Below, piece by piece: positions 60,353 through 64,000 of a stretch of DNA of 64,000 nucleotides. Every line of letters begins with the position of its first letter. The first letter of the stretch is position 1. Source of the stretch: Escherichia coli (GTDB lineage Bacteria; Pseudomonadota; Gammaproteobacteria; Enterobacterales; Enterobacteriaceae); NCBI RefSeq assembly GCF_048403405.1, contig NZ_CP183129.1; one strand, 5' to 3'. Both the position numbers and the translations under genes were made by a program. The notes beneath the pieces were generated by a model. The model did no database searches, was not told the DNA's origin, and saw only the letters and a list, made by a program, of their open reading frames with translations.

Positions 60353-61693
60353 ATGAGTTCTCAATTTACGACGCCTGTTGTTACTGAAATGCAGGTCATC
60401 CCGGTGGCGGGCCATGACAGTATGCTGATGAATCTGAGTGGTGCACACGCACCGTTCTTCACGCGTAATATTGTGATTATCAAAGATAATTCTGGTCACA
60501 CCGGGGTAGGGGAAATTCCCGGCGGCGAGAAAATCCGTAAAACGCTGGAAGATGCGATTCCGCTGGTGGTGGGTAAAACGCTGGGTGAATACAAAAACGT
60601 TCTGACGCTGGTGCGTAATACATTTGCCGATCGTGATGCCGGCGGGCGCGGTTTGCAGACATTTGACCTGCGGACCACTATTCATGTGGTTACCGGGATA
60701 GAAGCGGCAATGCTGGATCTGCTGGGGCAGCATCTGGGGGTTAACGTGGCATCGCTGCTGGGCGATGGTCAACAGCGTAGCGAAGTCGAAATGCTCGGTT
60801 ATCTGTTCTTCGTCGGTAATCGCAAAGCCACACCGCTGCCGTATCAAAGCCAGCCGGATGATAAATGTGACTGGTATCGCCTGCGTCACGAAGAAGCGAT
60901 GACGCCGGATGCGGTGGTGCGCCTGGCGGAAGCGGCATATGAAAAATATGGCTTCAACGATTTCAAACTGAAGGGCGGTGTACTGGCCGGGGAAGAAGAA
61001 GCAGAATCTATTGTGGCACTGGCGCAACGCTTCCCACAGGCGCGTATTACCCTCGATCCTAACGGTGCCTGGTCGCTGAACGAAGCGATTAAAATTGGTA
61101 AATACCTGAAAGGTTCGCTGGCTTATGCAGAAGATCCGTGTGGTGCGGAGCAAGGTTTCTCCGGGCGTGAAGTGATGGCAGAGTTCCGTCGCGCGACTGG
61201 CCTGCCGACCGCAACCAATATGATCGCCACCGACTGGCGGCAGATGGGCCATACGCTCTCGTTACAATCCGTTGATATCCCGCTGGCGGATCCGCATTTC
61301 TGGACGATGCAAGGTTCGGTACGTGTGGCGCAAATGTGTCATGAATTTGGCCTGACCTGGGGTTCACACTCTAACAACCACTTCGATATTTCCCTGGCGA
61401 TGTTTACCCATGTAGCCGCTGCTGCACCGGGTAAAATTACTGCTATTGATACGCACTGGATCTGGCAGGAAGGCAATCAGCGTCTGACCAAAGAACCGTT
61501 TGAGATCAAAGGCGGGCTGGTACAGGTGCCGCAAAAACCAGGATTGGGCGTAGAAATCGATATGGATCAGGTGATGAAAGCCCACGAGCTGTATCAGAAA
61601 CATGGGCTTGGTGCGCGAGACGATGCGATGGGAATGCAGTATCTGATTCCTGGCTGGACGTTTGATAACAAGCGCCCGTGCATGGTGCGTTAA
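60353..61693 (+). CDS. gudD: D-glucarate dehydratase (enolase superfamily)
   Basis: Start [23 protein letters not shown] gives 446 aa (ORF-track 60329). Confidence 0.9.
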
Positions 61694-61767
61694 GACAGAA
61701 AACCAAAACCGGCTTCATAAGAAGTCGGTTTGAGATTACTGACGAAGTGGTTTACGGGGCCGGTTTT

Positions 61768-61799
61768 CCCCCTCACCCTCTCCCCGGAGGGGCGAGGGG
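61768..61799. repeat. GC-rich imperfect inverted repeat (ccccctcaccctctcccc / ggaggggcgagggg) between convergent gudD and barA
   Basis: Read directly; could act as a bidirectional terminator or be a copy of a dispersed GC-rich intergenic repeat. Confidence 0.4.
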
Positions 61800-61863
61800 A
61801 CTGTCTGTGCTGCTCCCAGCATTGGCATTGGACGGAACCTATTTTGACTCGACAAGACGTCCA

Positions 61864-64000
61864 TTACCCGAGAATTTTGCTGGCTTCGCGCGCGACATTA
61901 TCCATCTCGTCCAACAGTTCCAGCAGCTCCGGCTCCAAATCTTCTTCTTTAGTACCGCTACGTAGCTGTTGTTCGATCAGCTGGCAGAGATTCTTCATAC
62001 GCGGCACACCGCTATAGCCGCAACTGCCATGCAGTTTATGAATCAAATCAACCAGGCCTTCCGGGTTTTCTCCAACCAGCTGTTCCTCAACTTTGTTGCG
62101 AACTTCAGGCAGGAAATCGAGTAACATTTGCAGCATATCGCGCGCTAAATCGGTTTTTCCTGCTGCCTGGCGTAGTGCCAGTTGCCAGTCGAGGGTCGCA
62201 TTCGGGTTCACCACAATTTCGTTGACTTCGGGCGTCACGACGCGAGACGAAATACCGCTGCCAGGCTTGTAGCGCAACAACAAATTATGCAATCGCTCTT
62301 CTTCAATCGGTTTCGCCAGATAATCGCTCATCCCTGCGCCAAGCAGCTTCTCTTTTTGCCCGGCCATTGCATGCGCCGTTACCGCGATAACTGGCGTTTG
62401 TTGCTGATGGGGGAGCTGGTGGATGAGTTCGCAGGCCCGAATGCCGTCCATGTCCGGCATTTGAATATCCATTAAGATCAAATCGAACGGCATCTGTTTC
62501 GCCCGTTCAACCGCCTGATGCCCGCTATCGCAAAGTTCCACATGTTGCACCATATCTTCCAGCAATGCGCCGATAAGTTTCAGGTTAGCGGGGTTGTCAT
62601 CAACCGCCATGACTGTCATTGCCAGCTTACTTTCATCGGTTACAGGCAAAAGCGTGTTTTGTTTGTGATGACAAAATTCCGTCAGGGCAGGTAACAGGCG
62701 CGTAGGTGTTAATGGTTTCAGCAGACACGCGCCGATACCATCTTGCTTAAGTTTTTCAGCATTGACTTGTGCATGGCAAGGAAGTGCCAGCATCAGAAAA
62801 TCGGTCATCGATACCGCTTTCGCTAATCGCTCATGTTGCATTGTTAGCGGCTCGCGGAAGGTCACCGCGATGCCTAACAACATCATGTCGTAATGCGCGG
62901 GAGGCAGCGCGGAGAACGTTGGGCTATAAACCACTTCCAGCGGCGTTTCACTTAAAATATCCAGCGTGCATTGCGCTGCTGCGGAGTTTGGTTCGACATA
63001 GGCCAGGCGCTTGCCGGCTAGGCACTGGGTGGATGGCCCTTCGATAATAATGTTCGGGTTCAGATCGAGATTAATGTGGAACCAGAAAGTTGAACCGCGA
63101 TTCGGCTGGCTATGGAACGAAATATCGCCGCCCATTTCATTAACCAGTTTTTGTGTAATCACCAGCCCCAGCCCGGTGCCACCATGACGGCGGGAAATAC
63201 TGGCATCAGCCTGTCGGAAGGCCTGGAATAAGCGCGATTGATCGCGTTCAGGAATACCAATGCCGGTATCCCGAATCTGCACTTCAATCTGCACTTTAGT
63301 ATTACTCAGAGCACGTTTTTCTACCAGAATATCAATGTTGCCATTCTCGGTGAATTTAATTGCATTCCCCACCAGGTTAGTGATGATTTGCTGTAATCGC
63401 AGTGGGTCGCCGATCACGTTATCGGGCACGTCGCTCTTAATATTGAGCGTCAGTTCCAACCCTTTATCGTGAGAAGAATGTGCCAGCAGGGTAACGACTT
63501 CATCCAGCGTGCTGCGTAGTGGGAATGGAATACTTTCCAGAATCAGCTTACCTGCTTCCAGTTTCGAGAAGTCGAGAACATCATTAATAATTGCCAGCAA
63601 ATTATTTGCCGAACGTTCAATCGTATTCAGGTGATCGCGCTGCGTTGGTGTTAATTCTGTTTTCAGCGTCAGGCGGGTAAAGCCAATAACACCATTCAGT
63701 GGTGTACGCAGCTCGTGTGACATATTTGCAAGAAACTCGGATTTAATACGCGCCGCTTCCTGGGCGCGCTTTTTCGCCAGATCCAACTCAACGTTCTGAA
63801 TTTCCATCTGCTCCAGCGTTTCACGCAGATCGGACGTCGCCTGGTCGATATTGTGCTGCATCTCTTCGTGATAAGCAGCCAGCGACATTGCCATCGAGTT
63901 GATACCGTTTTTCAGCATATCCAGCTCGCCGAGCATAAATCCTTCCACACGGCTGTCGAGTTGCCCGCGACGGATGCGGTCGACGGTATTCACCATATTG
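61864..64000 (-). CDS. barA: hybrid sensor histidine kinase BarA, C-terminal part (HisKA/HATPase, receiver, HPt); N-terminus lies beyond the window
   Basis: ORF open to the window edge; H-box [10 protein letters not shown], receiver domain and C-terminal HPt. Confidence 0.9.

Follow-up and report, generated by a model that had tools for sequence, protein, structure and literature searches.

A GC-rich hairpin between gudD and barA of Escherichia coli, very probably the remnant of a collapsed BoxC inverted pair

BoxC elements and the gudD-barA hairpin

BoxC is a GC-rich palindromic repeat of 56 bp, with 32 copies in E. coli according to the figures of Bachellier 1999 as tabulated in PMC2267715. 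Hoyne and Maher (2000, 2002, as cited in PMC4666352) described the same repeat anew as the PIT (potential intrastrand triplex) element, and Holder et al. (2015, PMC4666352) later studied it under the name TMECO (triplex motif of E. coli). The consensus given by Holder et al., CCCTCNCCC-N3-6-GGGNGAGGG-N3-GGGNGAGGG, consists of three 9-nt blocks and two loops, and loop 2 distinguishes type A (TTA) from type B (CCG-like). The TMECO copies of K-12, 23 in number, are all intergenic, and an inverted pair of one type A and one type B motif is present at five K-12 sites (PMC4666352). Taken together, the two sources put the family at 23-32 copies in K-12 and, across 56 strains, at about 15 copies in each genome (PMC4666352; the figure of 32 as tabulated in PMC2267715). 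A TMECO strand alone folds as an intrastrand triplex in vitro, as seen by CD and NMR, and deletions within TMECO pairs leave stem-loops at other sites, an outcome termed the 'palindrome effect' (PMC4666352, with the legend of its Fig. S6). Neither gudD nor barA is named in the supplements of Holder et al., whose study has 63 TMECO loci. Publications from 2016 onwards on such triplex repeats of E. coli yielded no new functional assignment.

The stretch that we analyzed is 64,000 nt of E. coli DNA (contig NZ_CP183129.1), referred to below as the window. Towards its end it carries gudX and gudD on the plus strand and barA on the minus strand, and these gene names agree with the RefSeq annotation of an identical stretch in TUM14771. 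gudD ends with a stop codon at 61691-61693 (plus strand), and the stop codon of barA is at 61864-61866 (minus strand). The two convergent stops enclose a spacer of 170 bp (61694-61863), and the imperfect inverted repeat that the earlier note had placed in this gap is present exactly as described: positions 61768-61799 read ccccctcaccctctcccc followed by ggaggggcgagggg, as a whole ccccctcaccctctccccggaggggcgagggg. A repeat finder delimits the arms at 61769-61778 and 61790-61799, each of 10 nt, with 90% complementarity.

The RNA of the hairpin is predicted to fold with -22.5 kcal/mol on the plus strand and -26.1 kcal/mol on the minus strand. Relative to dinucleotide shuffles the corresponding z-scores are -2.2 and -3.1, and in a 46-nt frame -1.3 and -2.0. 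These values are modest because any sequence made of a C-run and a G-run folds well; shuffles of like composition fold nearly as stably, so the folding energy alone is not proof of anything beyond chance. The case that the hairpin is more than a chance structure is instead one of sequence homology. In the 64-kb window itself, an exact 30-mer and a relaxed motif occur once each (expected number 0), and further copies were found neither by exact search nor by a search allowing three mismatches, a motif search or a profile HMM.

The earlier note had proposed searching whole genomes for the motif. A 58-nt query around the hairpin matched 79,076 places, spread over 5425 of the 5426 complete E. coli genomes searched. 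The median genome has 15 such places, and almost all of them are chromosomal, with only 28 on plasmids. A 72-nt query likewise indicated multi-copy dispersal among the 5426 genomes. A profile HMM (nhmmer) built only from four unrelated K-12 BoxC pair loci (ygfF-gcvP, downstream of alx, upstream of fepB, and hrpB-mrcB) matched the window at 61758-61810 on the plus strand with E = 1.3e-8, the sole significant match in the 64 kb. The matching stretch includes flanks of the hairpin, GGCCGGTTTT on the left and ACTGTCTGTGC on the right, and in an alignment the flank ACTGTCnGnGC is common to the window element and to copies at yabI-thiQ, hemH-adk and ppc-argE. Farther right, 61811-61837 (plus strand) is probably the outer right flank of the composite unit that BoxC pairs form (ending in CATTGGCATTGGAC, compared with TTTGTCATCTGAC at K-12 pair loci), but similarity is weaker there and suggestive only, as the HMM match that reached 61837 came from a model that included the same locus from another strain. 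Judged by this homology, the gudD-barA hairpin derives from the BoxC/PIT/TMECO family by descent. It is chromosomal and, as for every K-12 copy, intergenic.

The core of the remnant (61768-61799) reads, on the minus strand, CCCCTCGCCCC-TCC-GGGGAGAGGG fused to TGAGGGGG. Blocks CCCCTCGCCCC and GGGGAGAGGG and a fragment of GGGTGAGGGG are thus shared with the family, and loop 1, TCC, is that of K-12 copies 18 and 23. Unlike canonical copies, the window copy has no loop 2 (TTA), and its G-blocks 2 and 3 overlap. Its minus strand, CCCTCGCCCCTCCGGGGAGAGGG-TGAGGGG, equals K-12 TMECO copy no. 23 (CCCTCGCCCCTCCGGGGAGAGGGTTAGGGTGAGGGG) minus six bases, and when the two are aligned the six-base gap falls between CCCTCGCCCCTCCGGGGAGAGGG and TGAGGGG. 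The window copy is also chimeric, its left end coming from a type B unit and the remainder from a type A unit. A regular expression for the strict consensus of Holder et al. had no match on either strand of the 64-kb window; it matched twice in each of the full-length allele sequences L002 and L004 and once each in L010 and L014. By sequence, therefore, the copy falls outside the three-block structural definition of the family, while its descent from the family holds. The suggestion in the earlier note that the hairpin might belong to another dispersed GC-rich repeat family is accordingly correct as to descent and dispersal, but the family has long been known and the copy in the window is a deleted remnant of it.

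REP/BIME elements are short GC-rich palindromic intergenic repeats, as is the window element. The latter nevertheless has no similarity to the REP consensus (of the GCCGGATAAGGCGTT…ACGCCGCATCCGGC type), and its composition of a C-run and a G-run with mirror symmetry differs from the GCCGGATG…CATCCGGC type of REP. As the alignments confirm, REP units are present in the spacers of K-12, O157 and ST131 and absent from that of the window, and the earlier note was right to call the hairpin unlike REP.

Among Rfam families, the best candidates in 61400-62100 (E <= 10) were Antizyme_FSE (22 bits, with the cut-off at 40) and STnc350 (17 bits, with the cut-off at 60), both of which we regard as chance matches. 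The five K-12 BoxC pair loci that we checked carry no feature in NC_000913.3. With no feature in that record and no Rfam match at threshold, the hairpin looked unfamiliar. A 42-aa open reading frame on the minus strand (61736-61864, ending in GEGEGENRPRKPLRQ) has an ATG start that overlaps the barA stop and a frame that runs through the repeat; it is probably spurious, i.e. the repeat read in frame.

Alleles of the spacer and the deletion junction

The gudD-barA spacer (61694-61863 in the window) is polymorphic in E. coli, and three alleles were compared across 5426 genomes. The REP/BIME allele predominates (5210 of 5426 genomes, about 96%) and is found in K-12, O157, ST131 and most others. 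A second allele, with a spacer of 240 bp, contains two complete BoxC motifs as an inverted pair and was found in about 188 of the 5426 genomes, in 140 of them at an identity of at least 99%. The third, collapsed allele has a spacer of 170 bp, includes the type of the window and is limited to 13 of the 5426 genomes; TUM14771 and MS 69-1 are examples of its carriers. K-12 carries REP at this locus, which is why the locus is missing from the 23 K-12 TMECO sites.

In the 240-bp allele, the left motif is of type B (loop GCG) and the right motif of type A (loop TTA), in inverted orientation, i.e. the canonical pair of the family. In the representative L004, the consensus matches at 571-605 on the plus strand and at 635-669 on the minus strand. 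The pair forms a near-perfect palindrome of about 100 nt with a predicted folding energy of -82 kcal/mol (z = -6.9). The unit of about 140 bp, with the central spacer and the outer flanks included, can be aligned over its whole length to the K-12 pair loci. The window shows only a fused remnant of this arrangement.

Alignment of the window with XJ6.1, MEW and MSB1_7A, the last representing the full-length allele, shows that the collapsed allele differs from the pair allele by a gap of 70 bp, the spacer being otherwise identical. The junction lies at a CCCT microhomology (61776-61779). The missing 70 bp comprise the central spacer together with most of the type B motif on its left and, on its right, the first block and loop of the type A motif. 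Seven of the collapsed genomes have TTTTCCCCCTCGCCCT joined to CTCCCCGGAGGGGCGAGGGG at the junction, which is the exact product of a deletion from the CCCT of the first block of the left motif to the CCCT of the middle block of the right motif. These seven have G at the position corresponding to 61775, and so does the left motif of the pair allele; the remaining six, which include the window, have A. The A makes the single mismatch of the outer stem, and on the plus strand the predicted fold is -22.5 kcal/mol for the A form versus -27.7 kcal/mol for the G form.

The occurrence of the G form in seven genomes fits a single CCCT-joined deletion of 70 bp, followed by the G>A substitution. The A form could also have arisen through a 64-bp deletion between CCCCTC repeats and a further 6-bp deletion, to which the 5-6-bp collapses at hemH-adk and yabI-thiQ in other strains are similar. 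This two-step origin is disfavoured, as the intermediate that it predicts was not found: a search of the 5426 genomes for a spacer with the 64-bp deletion only gave no full-coverage match above 91.7% identity at this locus, and the best matches were the collapsed allele itself.

We also looked for the origin of the alleles outside of E. coli, using a degenerate pattern for the end of barA, with which Escherichia loci were obtained from six GTDB species representatives. The gudD-barA spacer is kept in five of the six representatives, and all five carry REP/BIME there. Strain E69, sp. E1V33, E. whittamii and sp. MOD1-EC7003 account for four of these and are species other than E. coli; the spacer and hairpin of the fifth, SCPM-O-B-8794, which bears the title E. 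coli, are visibly divergent. In E. albertii a different gene adjoins barA. The presence of REP/BIME in the other representatives suggests that the BoxC allele is derived within E. coli and that the collapsed allele is derived from it, in the order REP, BoxC pair, collapsed allele. For the last step, we infer the direction from how frequent the alleles are and from the canonical form of the pair, and not from a rooted strain phylogeny.

The two fillings of the spacer, REP/BIME on the one hand and the BoxC composite of about 200 genomes on the other, are unrelated. When the window spacer (61694-61863) was compared with L003, L005, L006, L007 and L016-L020, homology between the REP and BoxC haplotypes returned only near the terminator-like hairpin described below and about 20 nt from the barA stop. 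In SCPM-O-B-8794 (L016), one 23-bp terminator hairpin sequence, AACGGCTCCTTACAGAGCCGTTT, is found in direct repeat on either side of the BIME, as though a duplication of the terminator had enclosed the REP cluster.

Together, these observations make it very probable that the hairpin is the scar left by a central 70-bp deletion in a BoxC pair, and not a terminator. The starting point would have been a minority haplotype in which an inverted B + A pair of about 140 bp replaced the usual REP/BIME. Long palindromes are unstable in E. coli. In the lineage of the window, a deletion between two CCCT repeats would have removed the palindrome centre, presumably by replication slippage between short direct repeats that the hairpin had drawn close to each other, and the G>A change at 61775 would have come later. 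Of the pair there would remain the left unit's C-block, joined to blocks 2 and 3 of the right unit. As two of the three blocks overlap, the mirror symmetry required for an intrastrand triplex would be lost and only a GC-rich hairpin could form. We thus predict from the sequence that the window copy, in which the third block has neither a loop nor mirror register, should not fold as an intrastrand triplex.

Comparable events are seen at other loci. At hemH-adk (L012, L013) and yabI-thiQ (L011), copies in other strains have lost 5-6 bp at loop 2, so that two blocks are fused (CCCCTCACCCTCTCCCC), and the motif is intact at these sites in K-12 or in another strain. On alignment evidence, decay of BoxC to a plain hairpin is recurrent across loci.

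Termination, transcript stability and chance

That the hairpin could be simply a bidirectional terminator, shared by gudD and barA, had been put forward in the earlier note as an alternative. The element resembles bidirectional intrinsic terminators in that a stable stem-loop rich in GC is placed between converging stop codons (with the folding energies of -22.5 and -26.1 kcal/mol). It differs from them in lacking a 5' A-tract and a 3' U-tract. Downstream of the stem, the plus strand continues with ACUGUCUGUG / ACUGUCUG and the minus strand with AAAACCGG, and a U-tract is found on neither. The T-run is on the wrong side, as TTTT 5' of the hairpin on the plus strand, which reads AAAA 3' of it on the minus strand. 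A scan of 61400-62100 for promoter and terminator consensus sequences gave no sites, and the element is missing from this spacer in 96% of E. coli. PIT elements have neither terminator nor promoter activity, according to Hoyne and Maher 2002 as cited in PMC4666352. The K-12 Term-seq supplement of Adams et al. 2021 has no entry for gudD and one entry for barA, in the 5' region; it refers to the REP allele, which is that of K-12.

A better candidate for a terminator lies 37 nt upstream of the BoxC remnant and outside of it, 13 nt past the gudD stop. This separate hairpin, AAACCGGCTTC-ATAA-GAAGTCGGTTT at 61706-61731, has an A-tract on its 5' side and a T-tract on its 3' side, and on the minus strand it is followed by TTTTGGTTTTCTG. 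Its folding z-scores are -5.5 (plus strand) and -4.3 (minus strand), and the arrangement of A-tract, hairpin and T-tract is conserved in all Escherichia examined. Across eight Escherichia sequences, its 11 pairs hold in spite of base changes, among them a double change from C-G to U-A and changes from G-C to G-U. From these features, 61706-61731 is likely to be the bidirectional intrinsic terminator of gudD and barA. In the window haplotype, a G·U pair of the plus strand becomes an A·C mismatch on the minus strand, and a simple terminator scan did not call this hairpin, so some barA termination may occur elsewhere. On all of these grounds, we consider a terminator role of the GC-rich hairpin itself very improbable.

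Near the barA stop, strain E69 (L017) and E. whittamii (L019) have a second terminator-like hairpin, ACCGACTTCATAAGAAGCCGGT followed by TTTTT. It is identical at 20 of 22 positions to the gudD-side hairpin of the window, ACCGGCTTCATAAGAAGTCGGT, and both differences are at paired positions. In K-12 this second hairpin is decayed.

The positions of the two hairpins bear on how the BoxC remnant would be transcribed. Most gudD transcripts would stop at 61706-61731, short of the remnant. It would be transcribed mainly within the 3' untranslated region of barA, as barA transcripts must cross it before they reach the hairpin at 61731-61706. A very stable hairpin in a 3' untranslated region can shield an mRNA from exonucleases, and the remnant might have been kept for that reason, as a stabiliser of the barA 3' end against 3'-to-5' exonucleases that replaces REP/BIME functionally. 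It is situated appropriately, between the barA stop and the likely terminator, 5210 genomes have at the same position a REP, i.e. a member of a class that is known to stabilise upstream mRNA, and deletions in TMECO pairs repeatedly leave stable stem-loops. We nevertheless regard such a role as improbable. The G>A substitution at 61775 weakens the fold by about 5 kcal/mol on the plus strand and about 2 kcal/mol on the minus strand, the restriction of the allele to 13 of 5426 genomes is consistent with a recent neutral deletion, and a hairpin upstream of the true terminator protects little if the terminator hairpin itself forms the 3' end. Most likely, the remnant would have no function of its own.

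A trivial origin, by chance in a GC-rich patch or by misassembly of a palindrome that collapsed in the data, would agree with the modest z-scores (-1.3 to -3.1) and with the difficulty of sequencing long palindromes. The homology to the family (E = 1.3e-8) and the comparable collapsed copies at other loci speak against it, as does the finding of the same junction in 13 complete genomes from varied laboratories and hosts, in two sequence forms. We regard the probability of a chance or artefactual origin as negligible and retain the reading as a scar of a BoxC pair.

BoxC pairs as composite units and the place of the remnant

BoxC inverted pairs at several loci (L004 at 540-700; L021-L023 and L025) share more than the two motifs. 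They form a repeated composite of about 140 bp, with a conserved central spacer, TAATnnTTCGCACCnnTGCnGGCCTGTT, and with outer flanks that read GCnCCGnTTTTC on the left and ACTGnCnGnGC…TTTGTCAT on the right. The layout is MITE-like; neither a transposase nor a target duplication was identified in these sequences. To our knowledge, no TnpA-REP is associated with BoxC.

A similar alternation of repeats is seen next to gcvP. Beside the gcvP terminator hairpin, K-12 (L021, ygfF-gcvP) has ygfF and a BoxC inverted pair, and strains without ygfF (ATCC 25922, L026; O157:H7, L027) have bglA and REP. Homology breaks off at query position 334-336, where the BoxC composite unit has its outer edge. On these alignments, BoxC and REP are alternative alleles adjoining a terminator at gcvP too, as they are at gudD-barA.

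One could imagine that the BoxC pair is a cassette of about 140 bp that spreads between intergenic sites, by a mobilising activity that is unknown or by recombination, and that it sits, here and beside gcvP, at the terminator-adjacent place filled by REP/BIME in other strains, having displaced an ancestral BIME at gudD-barA. We consider this unlikely. If it were true, the collapsed hairpin would be one stage in a cycle of insertion, palindrome collapse and decay, and this turnover would shape the 3' untranslated regions of core genes such as barA.

The BoxC family itself, its link to variable intergenic regions and the collapse of its pairs to stem-loops are already in the literature, and the present finding is an ordinary one that introduces no new biological principle. 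Its value lies in annotation and in serving to mark strains. A hairpin with neither a feature in NC_000913.3 (five K-12 pair loci checked) nor an Rfam match can now be called by a known name and is kept from being taken for the terminator of gudD or barA. For the family, the locus provides a clean natural example of the published tie between BoxC/TMECO pairs and local instability, in a series that runs from the full palindromic pair (about 188 genomes) through the microhomology-joined deletion of 70 bp (7 genomes) to the deletion with the additional point mutation (6 genomes, including the window).
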